Part shown: positions 6,992-31,665 of the stretch, one piece after another
How the letters are laid out: the number at the start of each line of letters is the position of its first letter
Numbering within the stretch: the first letter of the stretch is position 1
Assembly: GCA_001820215.1 (NCBI GenBank)
Contig: MHOW01000011.1
Location: forward strand, 13,579-52,255
Reading direction: 5' to 3'
DNA from: Candidatus Staskawiczbacteria bacterium RIFCSPLOWO2_01_FULL_33_13
GTDB lineage: Bacteria; Patescibacteriota; Minisyncoccia; Minisyncoccales; Staskawiczbacteraceae
Length of the DNA stretch: 38,677 nucleotides
Notes under the pieces: model-generated
The model's database searches: none
What the model was told of the DNA's origin: nothing
What the model saw: only the letters and a program-made list of their open reading frames with translations
Program-made: the position numbers and the translations under genes

Positions 6992-7957
6992 ATGATTTAT
7001 AAAAGAAATCCTTATTTAGACAAGATTTTTAAGCATTTAACTATACTTGCTTCCATTGTAAAGAGTAAAAATCAATTGTCTTTAAATGATGATAGTAAAT
7101 CCAGCGAATCTTTTTTTAAAGATTTACTGAATATAATTTTTGGTTATAATTTTATTAATTTAAATAATAAAGAAAAAAATTATGCTGGCATAGATCTAGG
7201 AGATGCTTCTGAAAGAATATGCGTTCAGATCACATCAAGTAATACTTCAAAAAAAATACAGGAAACACTCGATATATCTGATAAACATAAAAGATATGAG
7301 GAATACGACGAAATTACTATCCTAATTATAGGATATAAACAAAAATACAAGAAAATTTTCACTTCGAAATTTAAAAAATGCAATGTTTGGGATATCAGGG
7401 ATGTGTTTCAAAAAATTGATTCATTACCTACGCCTCATATAGAAAAAATTATAGAATATCTCGATAGAGAACTAGACACTGTTATTAAAATAAATCCGAT
7501 TGATTTATTAGATAAGGACATTTCAATTATTATTGATATATTATTTAATTATCTTTCGGAAAAAGGCTTTAAAGGTAAGGTAGGGTCACAACAACAGTAT
7601 AAATTAGTCAGAAGGCAAGACGGATTTATAGATAAAAAAAATAATTTAAACAATGTTAATGAGCTACTTTTTAATAGTGAGATTCGCCCTAGTTTAAAAT
7701 ACGATAAAAAAATCGAGGATTTTCTCAAAAATCCCATTAATGTTAATTTTAAGAAAAAATATTTTGCTATCACTGAAATATTTCAAAAAATATATTCTAA
7801 TAATACTGATGAATTTAACGGTATGGCATCTTTATTCGGCTTCATTTTCGACGAGGTAATAACCTATGAAAATAGAGAAAATCTTGACGATAGCAAGTTA
7901 TTAATATTATTACATAATATGTATTTTAATTGTGATTTAGGTAATAATCCTAAATAA
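6992..7957 (+). CDS. SMEK-domain-like protein; candidate effector component of an ABC-3C-type system
   Basis: The N-terminal ~165 aa follow the SMEK-domain pattern as I remember it: ...SLNDDSKSSESFFKDLLNIIFGYNFINLNNKEKNYAGIDLGDASERICVQITSSNTSKKIQETL...ITILIIGYKQ. The C-terminal ~155 aa are unassignable. The stop lies 1 nt before the next start. Confidence 0.6.
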   Translation: MIYKRNPYLDKIFKHLTILASIVKSKNQLSLNDDSKSSESFFKDLLNIIFGYNFINLNNKEKNYAGIDLGDASERICVQITSSNTSKKIQETLDISDKHKRYEEYDEITILIIGYKQKYKKIFTSKFKKCNVWDIRDVFQKIDSLPTPHIEKIIEYLDRELDTVIKINPIDLLDKDISIIIDILFNYLSEKGFKGKVGSQQQYKLVRRQDGFIDKKNNLNNVNELLFNSEIRPSLKYDKKIEDFLKNPINVNFKKKYFAITEIFQKIYSNNTDEFNGMASLFGFIFDEVITYENRENLDDSKLLILLHNMYFNCDLGNNPK

Positions 7958-7958
7958 A

Positions 7959-8201
7959 ATGTTAAAACCGACAAAATATACAGATCTAAATATTTCCCTG
8001 ATTGCAGTAGTTTCTGAACTTCTTAAGATTTTTAAAGTAAGCAATAGCATTACTTATTCAGAATTACTAAATAAAGTAATACAGAAAAAAGGAATTATTG
8101 CTAAGAATATTTTTTTGCCAGCACTGAGTTTTTTATTTCTTATGGATAAAATTACATACTACGAAAAAAAGGACATAATTGAATATAAAAATGAGAATTA
8201 G
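7959..8201 (+). CDS. 80-aa middle-component-like protein of an ABC-3C-type system
   Basis: Small helical protein (..ISLIAVVSELLKIFK...ITYSELLNKV.....FLPALSFLFLMDKITY), which fits a winged-helix-like shape. Its stop (8199-8201) overlaps the ATG at 8191 of the ATPase gene. Confidence 0.5.
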   Translation: MLKPTKYTDLNISLIAVVSELLKIFKVSNSITYSELLNKVIQKKGIIAKNIFLPALSFLFLMDKITYYEKKDIIEYKNEN

Positions 8202-9957
8202 CAAAATATATTCAAATAATGAATTAATGACACCGATTAGATTTAATCGTGGATTTAATGTGATATATGGAGATATTGAGAACAAGAACGGAGAAAAGAA
8301 TGAACATAATTTAGGGAAATCATCACTAGTTTATCTTATTGATTTTCTTTTATTGAAAAAGGTAACGCAAGAACATTTTTTATCAAGACATAAAGAGCAG
8401 TTTGTCGGCTGGACTTTTTATATAGAAATTGAATTAGGAGAAAATCATTTTTTAACCATCAAAAGATCTGTAAATAATCCAACTCGCATATCTTTCAAGA
8501 AGCATGATACTAAAGATCAAGATTTCTCTTCGTTAGAATTGTGGGACCATGAAGATACTAAATTATACGCAAGGAATGGTATGGATTCACAAGATATATT
8601 AGATAAATATTTAAATTTTAGTATCCTTAAAAATTACTCATATAGACATTTTTTACCATATGCATTGAGGGATCAATATGGCTACGAAGATGTATTTGAA
8701 ATGAGTCAGTTTCAAGGCCTCGACATTAATTGGAAACCATATTTATTTGCTTTATTGGGATATAAAGAGGAGGATGTTATCAACAAATATCTTGTCTATG
8801 ATCAGATTAACAGCTACAGAAAGATGTTGAATATTATTTTGGGGAATAAAAAAATTAATACTAGAGATTCTTATAATCTAAAGGAGGCGATTAATGAAAA
8901 AGAGAACGAAAAGAAAAGCATAATTGAACAAGCCGATAAATTTGATTTTTATTTAAGAGAGAAAAAACTTAGCAAAGAATTAGTTAACGATATAGAAATT
9001 AAAATTAGTGAGTTAAATTCAGAAAGATATAGGCTCGACTATGAAATAAATAAAATAAAAGAGTCGCTAGATAATAATGTTAGTTTTGACATTAAAGAAG
9101 TTGAAGAAATATTTGCGCAAACAGAGATATACTTTCCTGACAAATTAAAAAAGAGCTATCAGGATCTTATAGATTTTAATATCAGTATATCGAATGAAAG
9201 GGCGAGTTATCTAAGAGAAGATCTTGAGGTTAGCCTTGAATATGTAAAAGATATTGAGAGCAAATTAGAAAAATTTAATAAAGAAAAGGAGAGCATGTTA
9301 TCATTTTTGCGGAATACTGATACATTCTCAAAATATAAATCATTTCAAGGGGAGATAATAAAATTAGATGAAGAAATAAATAAATATAAAGCAAAATTGG
9401 ATTCTTTAGGAACCGCAGAGAACTATGAAAAGAAAATAGAGTTATTAAAAATTGATTCCAAGGAACTTGCTTTAAAAATAAAAAAAGTCATCGACGAAGG
9501 AAATGATGTGTTTGATTCAATCAAGAATTTGTTCAAAGATATATTTAAAAAGACCATGGGCTATACGGCATTATTGGTCGTAAAACCTAATAAAGAAGGC
9601 AATCCGCATTTTGAGACAACTACACTTGATAATAAAGATATAGATAAGCTAACCGGACAGGGAGAGGGATACACGGCGACAAAGATTCAGTGCGCCTCTT
9701 TTGTATTAGCTATATTAGCTACATATGCCAAGGAAAGATTTATTAAATTTGCTTATCATGATGGTCTAGTGGAGAGTTGGGGAAATGATCCTAAGATAAA
9801 CTTTTTTGAAGAGATAGCAAATCTATGTAATAGATACGACATTCAATATATAATTAGTGTTATAAAAAGCGATATTCCTGATAAGTTTAAATTCAGAGAC
9901 GATGAAATAATCGCAAGAGTATCACAAGAAAAGCCTCTTTTCGGTTTTAAATTTTAA
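8179..9957 (+). CDS. Coiled-coil ABC/SMC-like ATPase (DUF2326-like); ATPase component of an ABC-3C-type system
   Basis: Degenerate Walker A NLGKSS (aa 44-49, nt 8308-8325). Long K/E-rich coiled coil (aa ~230-450). C-terminal signature-like GQGEGY (aa 493-498) and Walker-B-like FAYHDG (aa 524-529, nt 9748-9765). The track start at 8179 is TTG; the ATG at 8191 (MRISKIYSNN) is the more likely start. Confidence 0.7.
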   Translation: MNIKMRISKIYSNNELMTPIRFNRGFNVIYGDIENKNGEKNEHNLGKSSLVYLIDFLLLKKVTQEHFLSRHKEQFVGWTFYIEIELGENHFLTIKRSVNNPTRISFKKHDTKDQDFSSLELWDHEDTKLYARNGMDSQDILDKYLNFSILKNYSYRHFLPYALRDQYGYEDVFEMSQFQGLDINWKPYLFALLGYKEEDVINKYLVYDQINSYRKMLNIILGNKKINTRDSYNLKEAINEKENEKKSIIEQADKFDFYLREKKLSKELVNDIEIKISELNSERYRLDYEINKIKESLDNNVSFDIKEVEEIFAQTEIYFPDKLKKSYQDLIDFNISISNERASYLREDLEVSLEYVKDIESKLEKFNKEKESMLSFLRNTDTFSKYKSFQGEIIKLDEEINKYKAKLDSLGTAENYEKKIELLKIDSKELALKIKKVIDEGNDVFDSIKNLFKDIFKKTMGYTALLVVKPNKEGNPHFETTTLDNKDIDKLTGQGEGYTATKIQCASFVLAILATYAKERFIKFAYHDGLVESWGNDPKINFFEEIANLCNRYDIQYIISVIKSDIPDKFKFRDDEIIARVSQEKPLFGFKF

Positions 9958-10383: not shown

Positions 10384-10427
10384 TTTTTGTTACAAAAAAC
10401 ATACCACGGATATAGCCGGTAAAAATT

Positions 10428-11243
10428 ATGAAAAAACTCATCATATCGTTAGTTTTGTTGTTTGCGCCAATGCTTACTTTTGCGTCCATTGACACTAATC
10501 TTTATTACGGACTTCACAACAATGGAAATGTTAAAGAATTACAGGAATTTTTAATTAGTAAAAGTTTTTTAACGGGCCCGGCTACCGGAAACTTTTATTC
10601 TTTAACCCTTAACGCAGTCAAAAAATATCAGGCAAGCCAAAGCATAAATCAAACTGGATATGTTGGCATTTTAACGAGGACTGCCATCAATGACGATTTG
10701 GCCAACCAATTGCAAGAAAGCAATGTGCAGACCACGAACGAAACTGGCACGAACCCGCCGGCCTCGGAATCGCAGAAAACAATGAATGACGTAGTTTCTA
10801 CCATTCAGTCCCAGATCACCCTCTTACAAAAGCAATTAGAGGCTTTAAAGGCACAACAGACAGTGATTCAGCAGCAAAATCAGGTTATTCAACAGATCCA
10901 ACAAAATACCCAGCAGATAGTGCAAAATACCACGCCAGTTATAACACCAGTCCCGGCTCCGGTGCCGGCATTTGCATTCGAACCAATTTTAACAAATTCC
11001 TATGATCGAGATTTGGTGGTGGTCATAAAAGAAAAATTTGATAAATGCACCTTGCTTATTTTTGATGAAAACGGCAACAAGGTGCGCGAGCAGGACTACT
11101 GGATGACCGATAAAGATGGAAATTCCAGACAGGTATACTCAATGGGAACCTATGGCCAGCACACATATTCAATAACGTGCGACAAATCAGGATTTCTAAC
11201 CACTACAAAGACGGGTCAATTTCCTGCACCTGTAACCCAATAA
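10428..11243 (+). CDS. Secreted protein with an N-terminal peptidoglycan-binding (PG_binding_1-like) domain and a Q-rich coiled coil
   Basis: Signal peptide MKKLIISLVLLFAPMLTFA. The segment VKELQEFLISKSFLTGPATGNFYSLTLNAVKKYQASQSINQTGYVGILTRTAIN fits the PG-binding repeat. Q-rich stretch QQQNQVIQQIQQNTQQIVQN. Confidence 0.7.
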   Translation: MKKLIISLVLLFAPMLTFASIDTNLYYGLHNNGNVKELQEFLISKSFLTGPATGNFYSLTLNAVKKYQASQSINQTGYVGILTRTAINDDLANQLQESNVQTTNETGTNPPASESQKTMNDVVSTIQSQITLLQKQLEALKAQQTVIQQQNQVIQQIQQNTQQIVQNTTPVITPVPAPVPAFAFEPILTNSYDRDLVVVIKEKFDKCTLLIFDENGNKVREQDYWMTDKDGNSRQVYSMGTYGQHTYSITCDKSGFLTTTKTGQFPAPVTQ

Positions 11244-11246
11244 CCC

Positions 11247-11633
11247 ATGAACAGAATACAAGTAAAAAAATGGTTCAGTCATAATTGGTTTGGGTTTTCA
11301 ATTGTCCTCATCCTTATTTTTATAATCGGAGGATATTTTTATTGGTTTCAATTACGACCGGCAAAAATAAAGCATGATTGTTCTTGGGTGCAAAAGCACG
11401 CGGATACTGTGCCAGAACTAACACAAGACCAGCACAACGAATGTATAGACCAGTGTAATTCCAAACCAACTACCACAAACATCCCAATCACGGGAGCCAT
11501 TAACTTTAATAAGTTCGTATCTACCCCTTTTTGTAATTGCCCAAATCCTCGCCCCTATGAACCAGCAAAAAATTGGTGGGAACGAGCAAATAAAAACCAA
11601 TATGATTTTTGTATTCATGAAAAGGGTTTATAG
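11247..11633 (+). CDS. Membrane-anchored Cys-containing hypothetical protein
   Basis: 128-aa ORF starting 3 nt after the previous stop. One TM helix (FGFSIVLILIFIIGGYFYWF). Confidence 0.55.
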   Translation: MNRIQVKKWFSHNWFGFSIVLILIFIIGGYFYWFQLRPAKIKHDCSWVQKHADTVPELTQDQHNECIDQCNSKPTTTNIPITGAINFNKFVSTPFCNCPNPRPYEPAKNWWERANKNQYDFCIHEKGL

Positions 11634-11639
11634 TGATGG

Positions 11640-12125
11640 ATGGAGAATTTAATTAAAATCATAAAAGATCAATTTAAGTTGGGTCTAAACGGAGATCATG
11701 GCCTAAAACACTGGCAACATGTAGAAAAGATAGGTAATTATTTAGCCAGTCATACAGGAGCGGATGGGCAGATTATAAGTTTATTTGCCTATTTGCATGA
11801 TTCAAAAAGAGAGGATGAATACGATGACCCAGAACACGGAAAAAGATCCGCTAATTTTGCAAAAGAACTACACGATAAAAAACTTTTAAGTATCTCTAAA
11901 AAACAATTGGACCAGCTAATTTTTTCATGCGAATTTCATTCTCAACCTAATACTAAGAGCAATGATGTAACAATACAAACCTGTTGGGATGCGGACAGGC
12001 TCGATTTAGTGAGACTTGGAATTACGCCTAAAAATGAATTTCTTTTTACCGAAAAAGCCAAGAAAAAAGAAGCTATTTTATTTGCTATTGAATTAAATAA
12101 AAGTTATCCACAGCAGATATCTTGA
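11640..12125 (+). CDS. Small HD-superfamily-like protein
   Basis: The H...H...LHD pattern is present (GDHGLKHWQHVEKIG...LFAYLHDSKRED...HGKRSA...WDADRLD). Confidence 0.55.
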   Translation: MENLIKIIKDQFKLGLNGDHGLKHWQHVEKIGNYLASHTGADGQIISLFAYLHDSKREDEYDDPEHGKRSANFAKELHDKKLLSISKKQLDQLIFSCEFHSQPNTKSNDVTIQTCWDADRLDLVRLGITPKNEFLFTEKAKKKEAILFAIELNKSYPQQIS

Positions 12126-12879: not shown

Positions 12880-14604
12880 ATGGAAAAACAAAAAAATAAA
12901 ATCAATCACACTCTTTATGCGAGAAAATCAAGCGAGGAAGAAGATAGGCAAGTCCTTTCAATCGATTCTCAGATAAATGAAGACAAGAAAATTGCATCAA
13001 GTAACGGTGTGATTGTGCCGGATGATGCTATACGCAAGGAATCTTTTTCAGCAAAAACAGAATATGCTCGGCCTGTTTTTGAATCAATGATAAAAGATAT
13101 AGAAGCAGGAAGGGTTCAGGGAATTATTGCATGGCATCCAAACAGATTATCGAGAAATGCCATTGATGCAGCTCGGCTGATATCTTTATTTGACAAAGGA
13201 AAGCTTAAGCAGATAATAACGGCGCAGCAGGTATTCAGAAATACTCCCTCTGATAAATTCTTTTTTAATTTGCTTACGAGTCAGGCAAAAATGGAAAACG
13301 ACAATAAAAGTCTTGATGTGAAAAGAGGATTGAGGAGGAAATACGAAATGGGCTATCCCCCGTGTCTATCAAAGGTGGGTTATATGAATGATGAATCGGG
13401 TAGAAAGGGCGATAAAAAATGGAAGAACGACACGGATCGCCAACCCTTGATAAAGAAAGTTTTTGAGGAATTTTTAACAGCAAGATATTCGGTCAGAAAA
13501 ATTAAAGAGTATGCGGATAAAAATGTATGCTTAAGGACAATCCAACGCAATAAAGAGGGCGGAAAACCTCTTAATGAGTCTGCGATGTATAACTTGCTAA
13601 CAGACCCATTTTATGCCGGATTCTTTTACAGAAACGATGAAAATGAGGAAAAGAAAAGATACGAAGCACACGAGTCTCTGAATAGATTGATTACGGAAGG
13701 ACAATACTGGCAAGTCCAGAGAATTTTAGGTAAAAAAGGAAAACCGTGTCCGACCAAGTATCTTGAATCATTTCCCTATAAAAGATTTATGAAGTGTGGA
13801 TCTTGTGGTGGTTCGGTTACGGCGGAACAGAAACATCAACTGATATGTTCGGAATGTAAATTTAAGTTTTCCTATCCCAACAAAACAGCTTGTCCGAAAT
13901 GTAAAGTGAAAATCGAAAAAATGGAAAATCCAAAATACCTATACTATATTTTTTACCATTGTATAAAAGGCAAGGATCCGAATTGCAAAGAGGGTGCGCT
14001 GCAAGAAATAAAAATCGATGAATATGTAGCAGATTATTTTGCAAAAAACATTAAAATTTCAACTGCATTGAAAGAGTGGTGTCTTAAAAACTTTACTGAA
14101 ATTATCGAAAATGAAAAACAAAATGAATTGGAGGTAAGAATTTCCAAGGAGAGAGAATTGGAGCAGAAAAAGAAAGACTACGACAATCTTGTAAAGATGG
14201 GCTCCAGAGGGCTTATAAGTGATGAGGAAGCGTTTTTAAGGCTTGAGTCGAGTGCCTCAGCGGATATTAAAAAGGCTGAGCAATCATTATCTCGAGCTGG
14301 AGGATCTCCAACAGAGATGATAGATGAGGCAAAGAAAATCTTTAATTTTGCCGTAGGAGTGGCAGAAATTTTCAGAAATGGAGTGTTTAAAGATAAAGAT
14401 GAGGCTCTCACAGAAATTTGTTCGAACCTAACTTTAAAAGGCAAAAAAGTGGAAATTTACGAACAAAACTCATACCTTGCTTTAAAAAAGTGCATCGTGG
14501 AGTCAAAACTGAAAAATAGCAACTTCGAACCTGCGATTTACGGAGAGAATAATGAAAAAACAGAGTCTTTTGACTCTGTTCGTTCAACTTGGCTCCCCGG
14601 GTAG
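12880..14604 (+). CDS. Large serine recombinase (integrase type)
   Basis: Resolvase-type N-terminus with the catalytic-Ser context YARKSSEEEDRQVLSIDSQ, plus AWHPNRLSRN. Recombinase domain. Zn-ribbon Cys clusters (CGSCGG...CSEC...CPKC). C-terminal coiled coil. AGGAG lies 13 nt upstream of the ATG. The last 15 nt overlap the tRNA-Asn 3' end. Confidence 0.9.
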   Translation: MEKQKNKINHTLYARKSSEEEDRQVLSIDSQINEDKKIASSNGVIVPDDAIRKESFSAKTEYARPVFESMIKDIEAGRVQGIIAWHPNRLSRNAIDAARLISLFDKGKLKQIITAQQVFRNTPSDKFFFNLLTSQAKMENDNKSLDVKRGLRRKYEMGYPPCLSKVGYMNDESGRKGDKKWKNDTDRQPLIKKVFEEFLTARYSVRKIKEYADKNVCLRTIQRNKEGGKPLNESAMYNLLTDPFYAGFFYRNDENEEKKRYEAHESLNRLITEGQYWQVQRILGKKGKPCPTKYLESFPYKRFMKCGSCGGSVTAEQKHQLICSECKFKFSYPNKTACPKCKVKIEKMENPKYLYYIFYHCIKGKDPNCKEGALQEIKIDEYVADYFAKNIKISTALKEWCLKNFTEIIENEKQNELEVRISKERELEQKKKDYDNLVKMGSRGLISDEEAFLRLESSASADIKKAEQSLSRAGGSPTEMIDEAKKIFNFAVGVAEIFRNGVFKDKDEALTEICSNLTLKGKKVEIYEQNSYLALKKCIVESKLKNSNFEPAIYGENNEKTESFDSVRSTWLPG

Positions 14605-14664
14605 GATTCGAACCTACGACCCATTCCTTAACAGGGAATCGCTCTACCGCTGAGCTACCGGGGA
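14590..14664 (-). tRNA. tRNA-Asn (anticodon GUU), CCA encoded
   Basis: Folded by hand: acceptor TCCCCGG/CCGGGGA, D arm GCTC-AGCGGTA-GAGC, anticodon arm ATTCC-CTGTTAA-GGAAT, T arm GTAGG-TTCGAAT-CCTAC, discriminator G, then CCA. Confidence 0.92.
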
Positions 14665-14906
14665 ATATATTTTTTAATAAATTGTCTACCTTGAAAACTC
14701 TTTAACTGTTTTTCTCGCTTCAAAGATGCGGCTCTATTTTCTGTTTCTTCAGAATATATTAATACCCACTCACCGTCGAACCTTGAAGTATAAGACTTTG
14801 AGAATCCCTTTTCATTATGTAATCTCAGCCGCTCTTTAAGGTTTATTGTTTGTCCTATATAAATTTTATTATGTTTCTTGTTAAAAATTGAATATACAAA
14901 ATACAT
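14655..14906 (-). CDS. Small GIY-YIG (URI) nuclease family protein, 83 aa
   Basis: MYFVYSIFNKKHNKIYIGQTINLKERLRLHN...REKQLK carries the GIY/YIG, Arg and Glu motifs. The track ORF (to 14978, GTG start) has a 24-aa extension encoded by a tRNA-like fragment, so ATG 14906 is preferred. The stop TAG lies inside tRNA-Asn nt 1-10. Confidence 0.85.
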   Translation of the reverse strand: MYFVYSIFNKKHNKIYIGQTINLKERLRLHNEKGFSKSYTSRFDGEWVLIYSEETENRAASLKREKQLKSFQGRQFIKKYIPR

Positions 14907-14916
14907 AATGTAAATT

Positions 14917-14969
14917 GCTCTACCTCCGCCATCCGCCAACTGGCGGAGGCGGAGAGCTACCGGGGAATA
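14917..14969 (-). pseudogene. Duplicated 5' fragment of tRNA-Asn (acceptor 5' strand plus D arm) with a 29-nt hairpin in place of the D-loop AGC
   Basis: GAGCTACCGGGGAATA at 14954-14969 is identical to 14652-14667. GCTCTACC at 14917-14924 is identical to 14641-14648. Between them lies TCCGCCATCCGCCAACTGGCGGAGGCGGA (14925-14953), a 13-bp stem with one bulge. Confidence 0.65.
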
Positions 14970-15102
14970 CTTAACCACATAATATTATTATTTAAGGTTA
15001 TTTGCAAGAGTGATTTTTAATTTCAAGATTCTTTTTTGTGGTATTATTAAAAATAAGTAATTTTTATTTTAATAAAAAAATTAAATAACATTTTTAAATC
15101 CC

Positions 15103-22324: not shown

Positions 22325-25300
22325 ATGGGTATGGCTTATAAATCATTCAAAAAAACAATTAAGGCACTACAAAAAACAGTAGTGTTGTTTTTAGTTTTTG
22401 TATTTTTTATAACTCCCTTGGCTCCAGTGTTTGCTGAGGTTTTAGATAGTACTCCTGCTTTTGAAACTACAGAAGCTTCAACCGAAATTTTGGTTTCATC
22501 AGACATTTTTCCAACAGTTGACCCGGTGCCTTCGGATACTTCGTCTGATGTTGCGGTTTTTTCAGATGCTTCTAGTCCAAGTCCCGTTGATTCAACTATT
22601 CCTGGCGACAAAACCGACCCAACCAGTACTTCTTACAATAAAAATTCTACATCTTCGTCCATGGGTGCTAGCACAACTAGTTCGTCGTCTTCATCTGAAG
22701 TTTCAGATTCATTTAGTACAATAAAACAGTCTATTCCAGAACCTGATCCCGCAACCGGCGCTTTGATATATAGCTATCCAATTACAGTACCCCTTGGGCG
22801 CAATGGTATGCAGCCCGATTTAAAATTACACTACAATAGTCAAAGTGCCGCTCAGGACGGTATTTTTGGTTATGGTTTTGAGGCTAATATTCCTAAAATA
22901 GAAAGAATAAATAAACATGGCGTCAATAAGCTATATGATTATAAAGATTTTAGATCTTCTTTATCAGGAGAACTTGTAAATATATCTTCCGAAGATTATG
23001 TGGCAAAAATAGAAAATGGTTCATTTTTAAAATACAAGCTAATTGATGGCGTATGGATTATTACCGACAAGAAAGGCACTTTATATAAGTTTGGACGCTT
23101 TGATTCTTCAAAAATTTATGATTTTTCAAACACAGATAAAATTTATGCGTGGTATTTAGATGAGGTTGTAGATACCAACGGCAACTCAATAAAATATTTT
23201 TATACAAAAAATGTTGCTGATAATTTTTTATATCCCGATAAGATAGTCTATACTGGTAGTGGGGCAGAGGCAGGAATTTTTTCAGTTGAATTTAAAAAAG
23301 AATTTAGACCAGATTCTTATACAAAAAATAGTACTGGTTTTACTCAAAAAATTAATGAGCGCATTAAGTCCATAGAAACATATGTCTTTGGTACATTAAG
23401 TAGAAAATATGATTTGATTTACAAAATAGGGGATAATGGCAAGCGCTCTATGCTTGAAAAAATTATTGAAAGCGGAACGGATGGGTTTGGTGTTACTACT
23501 ACATTACCATCTTTTAATTTTGCTTATACTAAAGGAGATGTTGGTTTAGTAAATACGCCTTCTATAAATTATCCAATGGTTGTTGAAGATGGAGCATCTG
23601 TGCCATTTTCATTTGCTGACAACGCAGTTAAGATTATAGACATTAATGGTGATGGATTAAAAGATATTGTAAAATCCAGCATCATTATAAAAGATGGGGT
23701 TGATCGGCCAGTCTTTTGGGTTTTAAAAAATAATGGGTCAGGATGGGTGGTGGACAATTCTTACCTTCAGCCGATGTACTCTTTTGTTAATAGTTTGGGA
23801 AATACCGTTAACGAATATTTTACTTTTTCAAACTCAATTGATGTTGGCGATTGGAATGGAGATGGTAAAGATGACTTAATTAAATTTTGGGTTGAGATTA
23901 ATGGCGCAAAAGATAAACAACACGCTGTAGTATTGCTAAATACTGGTACAGCCTGGGTGCAAAATACTAATATAACAACAGATATACCCTACACTCAAGC
24001 CGGAAGTCCAATATATGTATACTCAGGTTCCTATGGTTCACAAAATCATTTTATTGATTTAAATGGCGATGGATTGATTGACTATATTAATGCTTCAAAT
24101 TATCAACAAAACGGCATAAATTATCCAAGTTTTGCAGTTTTATATAACGATGGCGAAGATTTAAAGTGGGATGCAACAATGCCTCAACCATATGCAAAGC
24201 CAAATCTTGCTTCAGCCAGTGAGCCACTTGCATTAAGTAATAGTACAAAAATACTAGATATTAATGGAGATGGCCTTGTTGATTTTATTTTTGCAAATAA
24301 TTACCAAATTAATGGCATTGATAATCCATCTTTTTGGGTTTTGATAAATAATGGGCATGGGTGGGATCAGGATTTAACTATTACTCAGGCGCAATATATC
24401 TCTCTTGATGTGAATGATAATGCAAAAACAAATTATTTTACCAGCACCCAGGGTTGGCGTGTGGTTGATATTAATGAAGATAGTCTGCCAGATTTTATTA
24501 TGTTTGGAACAATTGATACTGGCGCAAATACCTATAAAAAAAGGAAAACGGTTTTAGTAAACACTGGCAAGGGATGGATTCAAGATGACAGCTTGATTAC
24601 TATTGGAGATTATACTTATGTAGATTCCAATGGCACGCAAACCAATTATCCTAACTCTGGCGCAGGCGATATTGTATTACTTGATATTAACGGTGACGGA
24701 CTCTTTGATATTACTCGTCCGGGTTCTTACTATCAATCAGGAGTTTTTCGGGCAAGCAACTGGACACTTTTAAATAATGGCAAAATTGCCAACACTTTGG
24801 CAAAAATTGAACTGCCCCAGGGCGGCTCTTATGATTTTTCTTATAAAATGACAAGCGCCTATAAAGATGCTTCGGGAAACTTACTGAATAATAATTTACC
24901 ATCAGCACATAATACAATTAAAAAGATAATTCAAAATGATAGCAATGGCGCCGCCTCCACAAAAGATTATGAGTATTCTGGAGGGCGCTTTTTTTACGAA
25001 AACTCTTTTAATAAGCGTTTTGCAGGATTTGAAAAAATCACCAAAATAAATCCTGTAGGAGAAAAATTTATAACATATTATCATCAGGGAAACACCACAA
25101 ATTCAACTCAGGGAGAATTTGACGACCAAGAATCTAAAATAGGAATGATTTATAGGTCTGAATTATACGATAACTCTAATAATATTTACTCTAAAAATAT
25201 ACAAAAATGGGATAGTGCTGACTTAGGCGGTGGTGTAAAATTTGTGAAATTGGCTCAAACGGTAAATTTTATACATGATGGCGAGGCTACTCATCGCGAT

Positions 25301-28300
25301 ACCACAGAAAGCTACACTTATGATACTTATGGCAACACCACTCAAAAAATTGAATATGGCGAAGTTTTGGGAAATGATGATGGCGCATTTTTAGATATTG
25401 GAAGTGATAAATTTATAACTAATTATTCTTATGCTTCCAATGGGGAATATATTGTTGGTTTTCCTTCACAGGTAACAGTAAAAAATCAAAGTGGAGAAAA
25501 AGTAAAAGAAAGTAAATTTTACTATGACCTAGAGGCCATTGGTAGTGTAACAAAAGGAAATCTTACAAAACAAGAAGATTGGAAAAATGGCGTCGTCTAT
25601 ATTAACAACCAAAAAACCTACAACAACTATGGTTTGGTGACCGCGTCAATTGACCCAAGTGGAAATGCAACGCAATATGGTTACAATTCTTATAATCTTT
25701 ATCTAGCAATATTAACCAATGCTTTAAATCAGATTACACAATATATTTATGATTACTCTTCGGGACAAGTAACACAAAAGACAGATATTAACGAAAGAGT
25801 ATTTCAACACACCTACGATGGCGTGGGTAGGTTAATAGAAGAAAAACAGCCAGATTTGGCCGTGCCATCAATCTTAGTTACTAAGGCCACATACGCTTAT
25901 ACAGATACTCCAAATGCAGTAAGTGTTAAAAAATCAATTTACCTGGATGCATCAAATTCTGTTGACAGCTATATCTATTTTGATGGGCTTGCTAGAAAAA
26001 TTCAAGAACGCCAAGAGGCTGAAGGAATAAATTTTACAGTAAAAGATTATGTGTATAATAATGTTGGACAACTTGCAAAAGAATCTTTACCTTATTTTTC
26101 AACTGGTTTAAATAAAACTTCACCAACGAATGATTCTACACTTTACATAAATTATAGTTACGATGCTATGGGTCGCATGGTTACTTTAACCAATGCAGTT
26201 GGCAATACTTCAAATACTTACAACAATTGGAAATTTACCACAACGGATGCAAATGGAAAATCTAAAGATTTATACAAAGATGCGTATGGTAATGTACTAC
26301 AAGTTGATGAGCATAATGCTGGCAACACTTATAGTACTTTTTATAGCTATAATTATTTGGGAAATGTAATAAAAATTACTGATGCGTTAAATAATGTGCG
26401 CACCTTTACTTACAATGGGCTTGGCCAAAGATTAATTGCACAAGACCTTCATGCGCCAACAGATACCTCGTTTGGTATTTGGAATTATACTTATGACGAT
26501 TCGGGAAATATAATCCAAGTTGTAAATCCTAATAATCAAATAATTAATTACACCCATGATGATTTACATAGGCAGTTAACCGAGGATTATTTGGGACAGG
26601 AAGGAATAGAAGTAACCAATTCTTACGATAATGGCATTGATGGCAAGGGTCGGCTTACAGGCGTTGTATCTTCAAGTGTAATTCAGAATAATACTTACAA
26701 CGCTTTGGGATTTTTAAAAACTGAATCAAAAATTATAGATTCTGTAACCTACCCAACAACCTATGATTATGACAGGCAGGGGAGTCAAACTATGATTACA
26801 AATCCCGATAATTCACAAGTAAAAAATATTTACAATAGCGCAGGATTGCTTGATAAAACTCAAAGAAAGGAAAGTTCTGATGCAAACTTTATTGATGTAG
26901 TTTCAAATTTTGACTATTCGCCAATAGGACAAATTACCATCCAACAAAACGCAAACGGAACTGTCACAACAAACATCTACGACGCCACCAAACTTTATAG
27001 ATTAATTAATAAAAAAACTACAACTTCGGCTACTCCACCAGCACCACCTTCGCCTCCCGGACCGGTTTCATATTCATCATCTGATATTAATAGTTTTGTA
27101 GATATTAAAATTTCACAAAATCGTCTTAGCGATTTAATAACAAATATTAAAAATGGTGTTTTGGGTTTTGCTTCTAATTTTACCTCCGCTGTAAAATCAT
27201 TCTTTACTGTTCCTGTTGCTATGGCTGTCAGTCCTCCCATCATCTCCACATTCATAAGAGACCCTACCAGCATATTATACGACCAATCATCCAGATTATC
27301 ATGGACTCTTTCTGGCGGAGCTCCCACCAGTTTATCAATTGATAAATCTGTAGGCTCGGTGCTTGGCACTTCAGCCGTAAGAGTTTATCACATTCTTGAT
27401 ACTACTACTTACACTTTAACCGCTAAAAACTCTGCAGGTACTGTCACTAAAAAAGTCACCGTTACCGTTAATCACAAGCCTCCTATTATTTCAACTTTCA
27501 AGGCAGACACCACCACCATAAATTATGGAGACTCTGTCAGATTATCCTGGACACTTTCAGGCGAAGCTCCAACCAGTTTGTCAATTGATAACGGTGTAGG
27601 TTCGGTTTTAGGTATCTCGGCAATACGAGTCTACAATGTCACAAAAACCACAACCTACATTTTAACAGCCAAAAATTCGTACGGCACCGTCACCAAATCC
27701 GTGAAAGTCACTGTTAATCCCCAGGCTCCAGTGATTAATACATTTAGCGCAAGTCCGATTGCAATTACTTCGGGGCAAAGCGTGACATTGGCCTGGACAC
27801 TTTCTGGCGGGGTCCCCACCACACTTTCAATCAACAACAGTGTCGGCTCGGTTTTAGGAATGTCATCAAAATCCGTTTCACCAACGATAACCACCACCTA
27901 TATTATGACAGCAAAAAATATTTCGGGGACTTCATACAACGCTGTGTTGGTCACCGTCAATCCTGCCGCGCCAATTATTTCTACATTTGTAGCAAGTCCC
28001 ACTACTATTAATGCTGGTCAAGCTGCTATTTTATCATGGACGCTTTCTGGCGGAGCTCCCACCAGCTTGTCAATTAATAATTCGGTAGGGTCAGTGCTTG
28101 GTATTTCGTCCTTAAGGATTTATAATATTCTTAATACAACCACTTACACTCTTACTGCAAGCAACACTACTGGTTTTGTAACTAAGTCGGTCACCGTTAT
28201 TGTAACTTTGCCCCAAGCCGAAGCTCCAACCATCAGCCCAAATGGAGGAACATTTACTAGCGCCCAAACCATCACCCTTGAATCGGCCACCACCGGCGCC

Positions 28301-30034
28301 GATATTTATTATGCGACAGATGATTCAACTCCAACGGCCGCTTCAACAAAATATACTACTCCATTTACGCTTGAGCAAACTGCCACCGTAAAAGCTATTG
28401 CCCAAAAATCTGGTTACACCGATTCAACAATTTCATCGGCAATTTTTACTATTAATATTCCACCAACTTCAATCTGGTCTGGCCAAATTATTCAAGATGT
28501 AAGTTATACCTACGACGCCGTTGGTAATATTACAAAAATTGTAGATAATTCAAATACCAACACCAAAAAAGTTTCAACCTACACCTACGACGATTTGTAT
28601 CGAGTTACCAACGCCACTGTTATCGGCAGTGATGATTCAACTAAAAACTATCAGGAAAGTTATGTGTACGATGCCATCGGAAACATTGTAACCAAAACAG
28701 AAACTATTGGCGCTGGCACCCCAACAACCTCCGTTTATTCATACTCAAATGTTGACTACGCCAATCCGCATGCGGTTACCAGTATTGGTGCTACTGCTTT
28801 TTCGTATGACAACAATGGAAATATGTTGAGTTCAACTGGTGGATTTACCAATGTTTGGGATTACAGTAATCGCTTAACTTCTGCAATCAAGGGAACAATT
28901 ACAAATACTTACGGGTATGACGCCGGAGGTCAGAGGATAAAAGTTGCAAGTCCGACAGTTACCACAATCTACCCCACTAAGTTTTATAACACTGACGGAA
29001 CGAATATCGTAAAACACATTTTTGCCGGCTCTCAAGACTTATCCACCGTGCAAGACACCGGAGCAAGTGCTAAAATATATACAAATCACAGTGATTTATT
29101 GAATTCATCGAGTGTGATGACCGATTCCGCCGGCGTCCCCGCTGAAGTGATGGACTATATGCCATTTGGCGCGATCAGGATAGATGAAAAAGTAGGTTCG
29201 TTTAACGAGCAAAGAAAATACATCGGACAAGAATTTGATGCCGAAACAGGATTAAATTATTTAAACGCGAGGTATTACAACAGCGCACTTGGTAGATTTA
29301 TTTCCCAAGACCCGATGTTTTGGAATTTATCAAATGAATTACTCACTGATCCGCAGCAACAAAATTCATATTCATACGCCAGAAATAATCCGATAGTGGG
29401 AAGTGACCCCACTGGGCTACTGGTTGAATTAATGTCCAGACAGGTTTTTGATGCTAAAGGTCGCGATGTCGGAATACACACATTCTTTAAAGTAACGCCA
29501 GATTATCCAAATGATATTCGTATAGATGGGCTCGCAAGCGGAACAAAAGAGTTTACATTCGGCGCATATCCGAGCAGCTCTGATGGGTGGACTAACAAAT
29601 TATCAAAACAAATTGGCACTACAGAGAATAGCCAAGATAAACAATGGGCATTTGAGGGCGGTAAAATAATAAATCAAACCATTGTAAGCCTACCAGAAGG
29701 GGTTAAAAACGATACTGACTTTATTAATAATATGGGAAAAGCATATAATAATATGGATTTATCGGAAATGAATTATTTTTGGCATGGAAATGTTTCTGGA
29801 TTATATGATGGCAATTCCAATAATTTTACCTATACATTAGGTGTAAAAAGTGGGGCAAAGAGTCAAATGGATTCCTTTGATCCGGGCCCAGGTATAGCTA
29901 AAATAGTCGGTGAATATGGTTATGGCAAGACTTTACCCACCACAAGTATATATCACACAGCGAGGGACATGGCATATTATATGGGGAATAAAATTGGTCA
30001 ATTCGTTTCTTCATTAAAAGCCAAAAAGAAATAA
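22325..30034 (+). CDS. Giant secreted SpvB / FG-GAP / RHS-YD repeat polymorphic toxin (TcB-TcC-fusion-like), 2569 aa
   Basis: Signal peptide (VVLFLVFVFFITPLAPVFA) and an S/T/P linker. SpvB-like YSYPITVPLGRNGMQPDLKLHYNS (aa ~149-172). FG-GAP/VCBS-like DINGDGLxD repeats (aa ~439-795). Many YD repeats (YTYDTYGNTTQ, YIYDYSSGQVTQKTD, HTYDGVGRLIEE). RHS core YIGQEFDAETGLNYLNARYYNSALGRFISQDP. NPIVGSDPTGL motif (DPTGL is aa 2361-2365, nt 29405-29419). Confidence 0.95.
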   Translation: MGMAYKSFKKTIKALQKTVVLFLVFVFFITPLAPVFAEVLDSTPAFETTEASTEILVSSDIFPTVDPVPSDTSSDVAVFSDASSPSPVDSTIPGDKTDPTSTSYNKNSTSSSMGASTTSSSSSSEVSDSFSTIKQSIPEPDPATGALIYSYPITVPLGRNGMQPDLKLHYNSQSAAQDGIFGYGFEANIPKIERINKHGVNKLYDYKDFRSSLSGELVNISSEDYVAKIENGSFLKYKLIDGVWIITDKKGTLYKFGRFDSSKIYDFSNTDKIYAWYLDEVVDTNGNSIKYFYTKNVADNFLYPDKIVYTGSGAEAGIFSVEFKKEFRPDSYTKNSTGFTQKINERIKSIETYVFGTLSRKYDLIYKIGDNGKRSMLEKIIESGTDGFGVTTTLPSFNFAYTKGDVGLVNTPSINYPMVVEDGASVPFSFADNAVKIIDINGDGLKDIVKSSIIIKDGVDRPVFWVLKNNGSGWVVDNSYLQPMYSFVNSLGNTVNEYFTFSNSIDVGDWNGDGKDDLIKFWVEINGAKDKQHAVVLLNTGTAWVQNTNITTDIPYTQAGSPIYVYSGSYGSQNHFIDLNGDGLIDYINASNYQQNGINYPSFAVLYNDGEDLKWDATMPQPYAKPNLASASEPLALSNSTKILDINGDGLVDFIFANNYQINGIDNPSFWVLINNGHGWDQDLTITQAQYISLDVNDNAKTNYFTSTQGWRVVDINEDSLPDFIMFGTIDTGANTYKKRKTVLVNTGKGWIQDDSLITIGDYTYVDSNGTQTNYPNSGAGDIVLLDINGDGLFDITRPGSYYQSGVFRASNWTLLNNGKIANTLAKIELPQGGSYDFSYKMTSAYKDASGNLLNNNLPSAHNTIKKIIQNDSNGAASTKDYEYSGGRFFYENSFNKRFAGFEKITKINPVGEKFITYYHQGNTTNSTQGEFDDQESKIGMIYRSELYDNSNNIYSKNIQKWDSADLGGGVKFVKLAQTVNFIHDGEATHRDTTESYTYDTYGNTTQKIEYGEVLGNDDGAFLDIGSDKFITNYSYASNGEYIVGFPSQVTVKNQSGEKVKESKFYYDLEAIGSVTKGNLTKQEDWKNGVVYINNQKTYNNYGLVTASIDPSGNATQYGYNSYNLYLAILTNALNQITQYIYDYSSGQVTQKTDINERVFQHTYDGVGRLIEEKQPDLAVPSILVTKATYAYTDTPNAVSVKKSIYLDASNSVDSYIYFDGLARKIQERQEAEGINFTVKDYVYNNVGQLAKESLPYFSTGLNKTSPTNDSTLYINYSYDAMGRMVTLTNAVGNTSNTYNNWKFTTTDANGKSKDLYKDAYGNVLQVDEHNAGNTYSTFYSYNYLGNVIKITDALNNVRTFTYNGLGQRLIAQDLHAPTDTSFGIWNYTYDDSGNIIQVVNPNNQIINYTHDDLHRQLTEDYLGQEGIEVTNSYDNGIDGKGRLTGVVSSSVIQNNTYNALGFLKTESKIIDSVTYPTTYDYDRQGSQTMITNPDNSQVKNIYNSAGLLDKTQRKESSDANFIDVVSNFDYSPIGQITIQQNANGTVTTNIYDATKLYRLINKKTTTSATPPAPPSPPGPVSYSSSDINSFVDIKISQNRLSDLITNIKNGVLGFASNFTSAVKSFFTVPVAMAVSPPIISTFIRDPTSILYDQSSRLSWTLSGGAPTSLSIDKSVGSVLGTSAVRVYHILDTTTYTLTAKNSAGTVTKKVTVTVNHKPPIISTFKADTTTINYGDSVRLSWTLSGEAPTSLSIDNGVGSVLGISAIRVYNVTKTTTYILTAKNSYGTVTKSVKVTVNPQAPVINTFSASPIAITSGQSVTLAWTLSGGVPTTLSINNSVGSVLGMSSKSVSPTITTTYIMTAKNISGTSYNAVLVTVNPAAPIISTFVASPTTINAGQAAILSWTLSGGAPTSLSINNSVGSVLGISSLRIYNILNTTTYTLTASNTTGFVTKSVTVIVTLPQAEAPTISPNGGTFTSAQTITLESATTGADIYYATDDSTPTAASTKYTTPFTLEQTATVKAIAQKSGYTDSTISSAIFTINIPPTSIWSGQIIQDVSYTYDAVGNITKIVDNSNTNTKKVSTYTYDDLYRVTNATVIGSDDSTKNYQESYVYDAIGNIVTKTETIGAGTPTTSVYSYSNVDYANPHAVTSIGATAFSYDNNGNMLSSTGGFTNVWDYSNRLTSAIKGTITNTYGYDAGGQRIKVASPTVTTIYPTKFYNTDGTNIVKHIFAGSQDLSTVQDTGASAKIYTNHSDLLNSSSVMTDSAGVPAEVMDYMPFGAIRIDEKVGSFNEQRKYIGQEFDAETGLNYLNARYYNSALGRFISQDPMFWNLSNELLTDPQQQNSYSYARNNPIVGSDPTGLLVELMSRQVFDAKGRDVGIHTFFKVTPDYPNDIRIDGLASGTKEFTFGAYPSSSDGWTNKLSKQIGTTENSQDKQWAFEGGKIINQTIVSLPEGVKNDTDFINNMGKAYNNMDLSEMNYFWHGNVSGLYDGNSNNFTYTLGVKSGAKSQMDSFDPGPGIAKIVGEYGYGKTLPTTSIYHTARDMAYYMGNKIGQFVSSLKAKKK
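27233..28213 (+). repeat. Four tandem ~82-aa (246-nt) Ig-like repeats inside the RHS ORF
   Basis: Units start at nt 27233, 27479, 27725 and 27968. Consensus: (P/A)PIISTF.A.PTTI..G....LSWTLSGGAPTSLSI(D/N)N.VGSVLG.S....Y....TTTY.LTAKN..GTVTK.V.VTVN. Confidence 0.85.
29420..30031 (+). other. C-terminal variable toxin domain of the RHS protein (204 aa), family unassigned
   Basis: It begins right after DPTGL. It contains GIHTFF (His at nt 29477-29479), KEFTFGAYP (from nt 29546) and GNSNNFTYTL (Ser at nt 29816-29818). It has no Cys. Confidence 0.6.
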
Positions 30035-30039
30035 AAGTT

Positions 30040-30333
30040 ATGAAAAACATATTTATCAGTATATTGAAGCAAATAGGGAAATTATTTATCGGGATATTTT
30101 TAGGAATTACCATAGAGCTTTTTACTGGGATTGGTTTATCTTATTTAGTGGAGAAATTCTATACAGTCCATTTTGACCCAGGTCCTTTTGTAGTAGAATA
30201 CCCATTATTAATAATATTATTACTAGGAATATATCTTGTGTTCTGGAAAAAACAATATGCACTAACTATGGGTATGTTTCTTGGTGCCATTATTTTTATT
30301 TTTTCATTGGGAATTGTCCTTACTGGGACTTAA
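30040..30333 (+). CDS. 97-aa three-TM protein; candidate cognate immunity protein
   Basis: It starts 5 nt after the RHS stop, in the canonical position of RHS immunity genes. Confidence 0.5.
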   Translation: MKNIFISILKQIGKLFIGIFLGITIELFTGIGLSYLVEKFYTVHFDPGPFVVEYPLLIILLLGIYLVFWKKQYALTMGMFLGAIIFIFSLGIVLTGT

Positions 30334-30357: not shown

Positions 30358-30642
30358 ATGAAAAAATCATTTATTATTGGCATCGGATTAATTTCAGGTT
30401 TTATTTTTGAGCTTTTGAATCTTTCGGAATTTTATAGTATTTTTTTCCCGAAAAACTATGTAAACGCCAACGCTTCGCTTTTTCTTTTCATAGGTCCATT
30501 GTTGTTTATAATATCAAGTATTATTTTTACGATATTTATAAAAAAATACAATTGGATGTGGCTAATGGTCGGTTTTTTCGGCGGTTTCTCATTATGTTTT
30601 ATGGGTTTTATGATGTTATTAACTCTTGGTGGAGAAGTTTAG
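30358..30642 (+). CDS. 94-aa three-TM protein, paralog-like to 30040-30333; second immunity candidate
   Basis: Same topology and shared pattern LL.I....I...F.KK.........F.G......G...L..G. Confidence 0.45.
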   Translation: MKKSFIIGIGLISGFIFELLNLSEFYSIFFPKNYVNANASLFLFIGPLLFIISSIIFTIFIKKYNWMWLMVGFFGGFSLCFMGFMMLLTLGGEV

Positions 30643-30670
30643 ATTAGGACAAATATTACCAATAATAGAA

Positions 30671-30838
30671 ATGATAAAGAAAATAATAATTAAAGATGCA
30701 TATAGGACCATTTCGTTAGATTTTTCTCTAGAATTAGAGAAAATGACAATTATCACTGGAAAAAATAATTCTGGGAAGACAAATTTTATTACGAGTAATG
30801 GGGACAGCCACCATTTTATAAAAAATATGATATACTAA
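30671..30838 (+). pseudogene. N-terminal stub of an AAA_15/OLD-type ATPase, truncated just after Walker A
   Basis: MIKKIIIKDAYRTISLDFSLELEKMTIITGKNNSGKTNFI resembles the typical N-terminus of OLD/Abi-type ATPases. The reading frame then runs into REP copy A (30796-30815) and terminates. Confidence 0.55.
30796..30815 (+). repeat. REP-like hairpin copy A
   Basis: TAATGGGGACAGCCACCATT folds as AATGG-GG-ACAG-CC-A-CCATT. Confidence 0.7.
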
Positions 30839-30987: not shown

Positions 30988-31665
30988 ATGCCAAGAACAG
31001 CCAGAGTTGATATTGGACAAGAAGTTTACCATATTTTAAACAGGGCTAATGCCCGTGTGCAGATTTTTGATAATACAAAAGACTACTTAGATTTCGAAAA
31101 AATATTACAGGAGGCAGTGGAGCGCTTTGCAATGAGACTTTTAACTTATTGTGTTATGCCTAACCACTGGCATTTGGTAGTCTATCCAAAACAAGATAAA
31201 GATTTGGCTAAATTTATGGGATGGCTTACCAATACCCATACCCGTCGTTGGCACGCAGCTAAAAAAACCACTGGTCAGGGACATTTATACCAAGGAAGAT
31301 ACAAATCATTTTTGTGTCAGCAGGACGATCATTTTATTACATTAATGCAGTATGTAGAACGCAATCCTAAGAAAGCTGGGCTTTGTAATTTTGCGCAAGA
31401 TTGGAAGTGGGGCAGTATTTGGCGACGTGAGAATGGAAACAAAGAACAGCAGAAAATACTTTCAGAATGGCCAGTTGATATACCGAAGGGTTATTTAGAA
31501 TTAGTGAATCGTGCATCTGATAAAAAAATTGCTGAAATGGAAAAAATAATTGATGTAACTATCGAAAAAGGGAATCCATTTGGAGATAGTGAATGGGTAA
31601 AAAAAATTGTTAAAAAATTCGGACTTGAGCAGACGTTACGAACTGTAGGGAGGCCAAAGAAGTGA
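30988..31665 (+). CDS. rayT: REP-associated tyrosine transposase (RAYT; IS200/IS605-like Y1 HUH enzyme)
   Basis: HUH motif PNHWHLVV. Catalytic-Tyr helix MQYVERNPKKAG. N-terminal YHILNRAN typical of the family. Confidence 0.88.
   Translation: MPRTARVDIGQEVYHILNRANARVQIFDNTKDYLDFEKILQEAVERFAMRLLTYCVMPNHWHLVVYPKQDKDLAKFMGWLTNTHTRRWHAAKKTTGQGHLYQGRYKSFLCQQDDHFITLMQYVERNPKKAGLCNFAQDWKWGSIWRRENGNKEQQKILSEWPVDIPKGYLELVNRASDKKIAEMEKIIDVTIEKGNPFGDSEWVKKIVKKFGLEQTLRTVGRPKK

Follow-up and report, generated by a model that had tools for sequence, protein, structure and literature searches.

The window analysed here is a stretch of 38,677 nucleotides from Candidatus Staskawiczbacteria bacterium RIFCSPLOWO2_01_FULL_33_13 (assembly GCA_001820215.1, contig MHOW01000011.1, positions 13,579 to 52,255 of the forward strand); all coordinates below are those of the window. 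A single 7.7-kb open reading frame (ORF) on its plus strand (22325-30034) encodes a giant RHS/YD polymorphic toxin of 2569 amino acids (aa). The C-terminal 204 aa of this protein (residues 2366-2569; 29420-30034, plus strand, coding to 30031 with the stop codon at 30032-30034) belong to a real and so far unannotated family of RHS toxin domains, which share an invariant His and a position that alternates between Ser and Cys. The domain is very probably an enzyme with a His-Ser/Cys centre. It is fairly likely to be a distant PPPDE/DUF3750-like, circularly permuted papain domain, as judged from profile comparisons that stay below the family thresholds. With less confidence, a membrane or lipid target is proposed. 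The explanation favoured here, i.e., a Ser-nucleophile, permuted papain-like RHS toxin that acts at the membrane and is countered by an immunity protein with three transmembrane (TM) segments, has about an even chance of being right in all of its parts.

No match covering the domain was found in Pfam, NCBIfam or the PDB sequences. Profiles of 3 and of 46 sequences matched these libraries only in the RHS tail and left the toxin part blank, and the 46 members searched against Pfam at E<=1 gave no family match in that part either. A word-indexed protein search with the single sequence returned two relatives of about 54% identity, which come from a Candidatus Staskawiczbacteria genome and a JGI metagenome, respectively; with an alignment as query it returned seven, none of them a Pfam-annotated bridging sequence. 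An exhaustive search of 1.84 billion cluster representatives with the 3-sequence profile produced 57 matches at E<=1e-3, 11 of them at E<=1e-30. All but one, a spurious repeat protein, are real. Nearly all of the 56 representatives are RHS C-termini in which the domain begins directly past DPxG(L/K). Several representatives span a complete RHS protein (2,000-3,000 aa), and P0006 has the whole architecture of the window protein. A scan of species-representative genome contigs, a collection in which the window is absent, returned only the Staskawiczbacteria locus already found, and a tblastn search of plasmids returned nothing. Identical sequence is present in groundwater and soil metagenome runs, and the nearest named relative comes from a Candidate Phyla Radiation genome.

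Within the domain, the motifs VGIHTFF, KEFTFGAYP and YDGNSNNFTYTL follow each other in this order. They had been picked out in an initial annotation made from the sequence alone, which likened them to PPPDE/DeSI and LRAT/HRASLS enzymes with Ser in place of the catalytic Cys; its residue numbers, its reading of the codon TCC at 29816-29818 as Ser and its remark that the domain is free of Cys were all correct. Conservation was counted in a 59-sequence MAFFT alignment. His20 of the domain (His2385; CAC, 29477-29479) is invariant (49/49), lies on the strand of residues 16-25 and is the predicted general base. Asp73 (Asp2438; GAT, 29636-29638), kept in 50/51 sequences, may be the third member of a triad or a substrate-binding residue, and Tyr119 (Tyr2484; TAT, 29774-29776), kept in 55/56, is a candidate oxyanion-hole Tyr. 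The N-S-N-N-F motif (29813-29827) opens the helix of residues 133-143 and contains the predicted nucleophile, Ser133 (Ser2498). At this position 53 homologues have Ser and 3 have Cys; the neighbouring Asn132 and Asn134 are found in 56/56 and 55/56 sequences, respectively. Gly145, Gly167, Pro27, Thr46 and Leu61 are nearly invariant. In the alignment of homologous RHS C-termini that the initial annotation had proposed, the His and Ser that it named rank as the most conserved residues of the family. The Glu of KEFTFG is not conserved (14/49 sequences), and the conserved core of the second motif is F-T-x-G-x-Y. Given the 56 real representatives and this conservation, the motifs did not arise by chance.

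The Cys variants are scattered over the family (P0005, GNCNNF; P0041, YNCNNF; P0039, ANCSNF), and the nearest relatives of each carry Ser. The Ser codons at nine homologous loci (TCT, TCC, TCA and TCG) and the TCC of the window are all of the TCN class, from which the TGC or TGT of the Cys variants is reached by one transversion. Such an exchange between Ser and Cys at a site that is otherwise fixed, with an invariant His alongside, is what would be expected of a catalytic nucleophile at position 133.

The model computed by AlphaFold2 (AF2) from 3 sequences was poor, with a predicted local distance difference test score (pLDDT) of 59.7, and its Foldseek matches are meaningless. With 46 sequences a pLDDT of 94.8 and a predicted template modelling score (pTM) of 0.87 were reached, and all five models scored at least 93.6. 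Strands are predicted at residues 2-10, 16-25 (with His20), 45-51 (FTFGAY), 60-66 and 85-88, and helices at 98-111, 133-143 (starting at Ser133), 147-152 and 177-203. In circularly permuted papain-like domains the strands come first, the His is located on the second strand and the nucleophile sits at the N-terminus of a late helix. As His20 is on strand 2 of the model and Ser133 opens a late helix, the order of the elements appears to be that of a permuted papain domain. Helix permutation has been described for PPPDE1 (3EBQ; PMC10318531). The long C-terminal helix (residues 177-203; 29948-30028, plus strand) is amphipathic and has a basic tail. Its hydrophobic moment is 1.13, compared with 0.51 +/- 0.25 for shuffled sequences (p 0.014), and it may mediate membrane association; it is the least conserved portion of the domain. 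A scan of the toxin domain for hydrophobic or TM segments found none.

Profile comparisons were made in hhalign with a 52-sequence toxin profile as query. The reference sequences were checked: DESI1 is 100% identical to PDB 3EBQ, PLAAT3 (HRASLS3) is identical to 4FA0, and the DESI2-like sequence scores 157 bits on PF05903. The toxin profile matched DESI1 alone with P 0.004, a set of 18 DESI1 orthologues with P 0.0032, these orthologues plus DESI2 with P 0.0092, and the same set enlarged by two giant-virus PPPDE genes with P 0.0049; a separate alignment-versus-alignment run of toxin and PPPDE gave P 0.0019. Every toxin-PPPDE alignment placed NSNNF on the NCNTF of DeSI-1, Tyr119 on the invariant PPPDE Tyr101 and EFTFG on EFFFG. 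With the toxin insertion 27-42 deleted, the alignment continues through a pairing of His20 with His38. Among the controls, the best of 26 unrelated window proteins reached P 0.067, and 100 shuffled DESI1 sequences had a minimum of 0.042, with 0/100 at or below 0.004. When a PPPDE hidden Markov model (HMM) was run against the 52 toxins and 2,652 decoys (2,600 shuffled and 52 reversed sequences), the top four were real toxins, and the top 100 of the 2,704 sequences included 14 real toxins where about 2 were expected. On these comparisons the similarity to PPPDE is weak but specific.

Pfam scans of the trimmed natural members at E<=10 gave matches at noise level only. The sole match of the Cys member P0041 was to PF05903, Peptidase_C97, over the Cys-motif region (12.1 bits, E 0.17). 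One of 40 members matched PF12570/DUF3750 below threshold (E 0.053); this match vanished once members were concatenated in pairs. DUF3750 has been described as a papain-like family in which a conserved Ser replaces the Cys, accompanied by a His, a Glu and an oxyanion-hole Tyr (PMC10318531). The same source counts it among the few papain-like families with a conserved Ser for Cys, and Ser-based families of this type had been predicted earlier. An engineered consensus fragment, in which the Ser was changed to Cys and the loop was removed, matched PF05903 with E 0.006; as it was designed towards PPPDE, it was not counted.

A number of results weigh against the permuted papain assignment. No toxin member reaches any Pfam gathering score: that of PF05903 (29.2 bits) was attained by none, the window domain was left unmatched, and the C97 and DUF3750 matches are each at noise level. 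Peptidase_C97 has a His...Cys dyad; in the toxins the His is invariant, but the motif reads N-S-N-N-F in the window and has Ser in 53/56 members. Some 25 contiguous residues contribute most of the hhalign score, the hhalign probability is 7-14%, and the PPPDE profile is little diverse (effective number of sequences, Neff, about 2), because the search for DESI1 homologues listed only close vertebrate orthologues and the giant-virus genes added little. With the pLDDT-95 model as query, even the best Foldseek matches were not significant, neither among the 350,542 PDB chains (E 0.72) nor in BFVD (E 0.094), although the PDB contains PPPDE and LRAT-family (PLAAT) entries as well as the C92 structure 3KW0 cited in PMC10318531. 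The Foldseek search suggested in the initial annotation returned no significant match. The toxin profile scored P of about 0.10-0.12 against PLAAT3/LRAT (NSNNF on NCEHF), and P 0.29 and 0.76 against the C92 proteins YiiX of E. coli and YaeF, respectively. No toxin member had a Pfam match to LRAT PF04970 either, and neither LRAT nor C92 shows a convincing similarity. Finally, the proposed substrate and compartment are derived solely from the character of the immunity proteins. Of the weak structural matches, two point towards a papain-like fold. The highest TM-score in BFVD by far belongs to a pithovirus 'permuted papain-like amidase' (TMq 0.39 over 171 columns, E 1.4, non-significant), a match that is also the sole link to C92, and the NlpC/P60 effector TseH (6v98) is in the weak PDB list at rank 40 (E 2.9). 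In sum, the Ser-nucleophile permuted papain reading is favoured by the conserved residues, the Ser/Cys swap, the order of the elements and the PPPDE alignments, but neither a family threshold nor a significant structural match backs it.

The resemblance to PPPDE/DeSI (PF05903; PDB 3EBQ, 2WP7) lies in the order of a strand His, [E]F.xG, Tyr and N-[C/S]-N-x-F opening a late helix. The toxins differ in having Ser for Cys in 53/56 members, an insertion of 16-20 residues between the His strand and the next, further loops and an extra C-terminal helix of 27 residues; moreover, PPPDE/DeSI proteins are eukaryotic or viral cytosolic isopeptidases, whereas the toxin is secreted, bacterial and accompanied by membrane immunity proteins. 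DUF3750 (PF12570) shares with the toxin a bacterial origin, a conserved Ser for the catalytic Cys, and the His, acidic residue and Tyr (PMC10318531). In contrast, the six-stranded beta-sheet described as trailing the DUF3750 domain is absent from the toxin, and DUF3750 has not been reported as an RHS toxin. LRAT/HRASLS proteins (PLAAT; PF04970; PDB 4DOT, 4FA0) are comparable as candidates for a permuted papain fold with a C-terminal membrane-associating helix, putative in the toxin; the toxin lacks the second His of their C-H-H triad and has a predicted Ser nucleophile.

Directly downstream of the toxin are two small genes on the plus strand, both of which encode membrane-embedded proteins, as the initial annotation had said. 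The first (30040-30333) encodes 97 aa with three hydrophobic segments and is the candidate for the cognate immunity gene, here called type A. Its product is 57% identical to the ORF immediately 3' of the P0001 toxin at locus L001, and type-A homologues with an FWKKQYAL motif stand directly after P0180 (L007) and the Cys variant P0005 (L012). Clear type-A homologues thus follow the toxin at three further loci; toxin and immunity gene are linked, and by sequence comparison the product of 30040-30333 is the presumed protective protein. The second gene (30358-30642) encodes 94 aa with 3 TM. BLASTP alone found nothing with this product, but hhalign against the type-A alignment gave P 1.1e-4 over the full length. 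It is a divergent type-A paralogue and probably an orphan or second immunity gene.

Other members of the family are followed by other immunity candidates, and every downstream candidate found is a membrane protein. Type B, after P0002 and P0006, has 3 TM and aligns co-linearly with type A (hhalign P 0.0035); type D, after P0024, also has 3 TM. Type C occurs in the P0009/P0011 subgroup (L006, 4557-4871; L009, about 10400-10650, where the gene is missing from the source annotation) and has a basic N-terminus followed by one TM. Its C-terminal tail of about 50 aa holds most of the 9 Cys, in the pattern CKYD.DC..(M/L)DCNG...C.WNGSP.C...NNRCEC...C, and would be extracytoplasmic. Types A, B and D lie almost wholly within the membrane and expose a loop of only about 18 aa on the outside.

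The membrane immunity proteins, the lack of a TM segment in the toxin and its amphipathic C-terminal helix together point to the outer face of the membrane as the toxin's probable site of action. A Ser-based enzyme free of Cys would suit an oxidising extracellular setting. As to the substrate, members of the permuted families C97, C92 and LRAT work on molecules that are linked to lipids or lie at the membrane interface, and LRAT enzymes operate at the lipid-water interface (PMC10318531). In UniRef, DESI1 is labelled 'palmitoyl-protein hydrolase'. At L001 (Ca. Staskawiczbacteria JACPYG010000011.1), positions 1-2737 form an orphan toxin-immunity cassette array. Its first cassette consists of an RHS tail whose C-terminus is lipase-like (GGHSHGG; weak matches to PGAP1/Lipase_3), a Gly-zipper segment and a 100-aa membrane ORF, and the second of an RHS tail with the P0001 toxin followed by the type-A immunity gene. 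Based on the substrates of these families, the name of DESI1 and the lipase-like neighbour with its membrane ORF, a lipid or lipid-linked substrate is the preferred guess, made by analogy.

The following course of events is proposed. The 204-aa C-terminus would be the cleavable toxic portion of an RHS polymorphic toxin, probably of a groundwater member of the Candidate Phyla Radiation. Freed by autoproteolysis at DPTGL, it would reach the outer face of the cytoplasmic membrane of the target cell. There it would work as a hydrolase that belongs to the circularly permuted papain / NlpC-P60 superfamily and has PPPDE/DeSI and the Ser-based DUF3750 as its closest kin. Ser2498, replacing Cys at the N-terminus of the catalytic helix, would be the nucleophile and His2385 on strand 2 the base, possibly oriented by Asp2438 (or Thr2411), while Tyr2484 and Asn2497 would provide the oxyanion hole. 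The substrate of the toxin would be embedded in or anchored to the membrane, for instance a phospholipid, a lipoprotein or lipid II, and would be cut at an acyl ester or amide bond. The 3-TM product of 30040-30333 would shield the producer.

The same Ser-based permuted papain-like fold could also be directed against mature peptidoglycan or an isopeptide bond of a surface protein, in the manner of the NlpC/P60-type Tae/TseH effectors, with the immunity protein bound to the membrane merely because a cell without periplasm has to anchor it. The cell wall is commonly degraded by effectors of the NlpC/P60 clan (PMC10318531), TseH is among the weak Foldseek matches, DeSI enzymes are isopeptidases, and type C, with one TM and its presumed extracytoplasmic Cys-rich tail, is what an anchored soluble inhibitor would be expected to look like. 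Types A, B and D, however, are nearly all inside the membrane, and the toxin family is without the strand-1 'GD' motif given for the NlpC/P60 cluster in PMC10318531; a peptidoglycan or surface-protein target is regarded as unlikely, with peptidoglycan still a serious rival. Quite different would be a non-enzymatic toxin that disrupts or permeabilises membranes and in which the conserved polar residues are structural. Integral-membrane immunity, as seen with ionophoric toxins, and the amphipathic C-terminal helix would agree with it, but the toxin has no hydrophobic segment, that helix is its least conserved part, the invariant residues are polar (His, Asp, Tyr, Asn-Ser/Cys-Asn) and the single-site Ser/Cys swap fits a nucleophile, all of which makes such a toxin highly improbable.

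The domain might instead be a Ser/Cys-His(-Asp) hydrolase whose fold has no solved relative, its N-[SC]-N-x-F and Tyr resembling PPPDE/LRAT by convergence. Such a fold would account for a pLDDT-95 model with no significant match in PDB or BFVD, for the failure to reach any sequence-family threshold and for an hhalign signal drawn chiefly from one short stretch. Convergence is harder to reconcile with a co-linear match that spans three separate motifs and the order of the secondary structure, with the papain clan being matched twice independently, each time at noise level, among 24,736 Pfam families, and with the viral match of best TM-score being a permuted papain-like amidase; it is considered improbable. 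Equally doubtful is the more far-reaching possibility that a fold of unsolved kinship with a Ser/Cys-flipping nucleophile, neutralised inside the membrane by 3-TM proteins, serves ultra-small groundwater bacteria to attack the membranes of hosts or competitors. We know of no papain-like effector for which a pairing with 3-TM in-membrane immunity has been characterised.

The protein that carries the toxin has the shell repeats, the core with DPxGL and the co-varying downstream gene of an RHS/YD polymorphic toxin. A hydrophobic segment at residues 19-37 is the predicted signal or anchor. Pfam places SpvB, FG-GAP, RHS repeats (PF05593, E 5.6e-25, 6 stretches), an Ig-like segment and CHB_HEX_C on the protein. 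The RHS-associated core (29156-29419, plus strand; TIGR03696, E 7.5e-21, residues 229-316 of the segment starting at nt 28472) ends at DPTGL, the putative autoproteolysis motif and predicted border between RHS shell and toxin. In the homologues an identical ...DPxG(L/K) junction immediately precedes the toxin domain, and at L001 the TIGR03696 core precedes another, lipase-like C-terminus. The RHS shell is interrupted at about 27100-28450 (residues ~1600-2040) by four Ig-like repeats of about 90 aa (PPIISTF...LSWTLSGGAPTSLSI...TVKVTVN) and a CHB_HEX_C / Fn3-associated domain; Tandem Repeats Finder detected no repeat at the DNA level in this region, and in the full-length homologue P0006 another insert occupies this position. 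With RHS/WapA-type polymorphic toxin systems and TcB-TcC cocoons the system shares the SpvB and FG-GAP N-terminal regions, the RHS shell, the TIGR03696 core ending in DPxGL, the swappable C-terminal toxin, the immunity gene next downstream and the orphan cassette array (L001). It departs from them in its unannotated toxin domain, its tiny 3-TM immunity proteins and its uncultured groundwater host.

Several other features were noted in the window. Three adjoining genes on the plus strand (6992-9957) match an ABC-three-component (ABC-3C) conflict system: an SMEK_N + CTD12 effector (6992-7957), an MC8/MC6 middle component (7959-8201) and a DUF2326 gene (8179-9957). Another ORF (10428-11243, plus strand) has a PG_binding_1 peptidoglycan-binding domain; after it come two small ORFs within 11247-12125 with no family match. 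A large serine recombinase (Resolvase + Recombinase, 12880-14604) ends within a tRNA-Asn gene on the minus strand (14590-14664), and a GIY-YIG ORF (14655-14978) comes next; this region (12880-14978) may mark the border of an integrated element to which the RHS locus belongs. Just past the immunity genes, a 70-aa ORF (30626-30838) corresponds to no more of an AAA_15-type ATPase than its Walker-A N-terminus (E 2.6e-5, below threshold); after it, at 30988-31665, comes an IS200-like Y1 transposase (E 2.9e-19). The arrangement resembles that of a gene cut short by an insertion.

An RHS polymorphic toxin with its immunity gene is a well-known type of system; the toxin domain is absent from every family library. 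If the proposed explanation is true, a secreted Ser-nucleophile branch would be added to the permuted papain / NlpC-P60 superfamily, and the family would offer a natural Ser/Cys series for studying the Cys-to-Ser exchange in papain-like enzymes, which is poorly explored (PMC10318531). The 56 further representatives can be used for a new family model. To our knowledge, the dealings of Candidate Phyla Radiation bacteria with other cells are largely uncharacterised. For bacteria of this type the toxin would, if the explanation holds, be a candidate for a membrane-directed weapon that is matched by a tiny 3-TM immunity protein.

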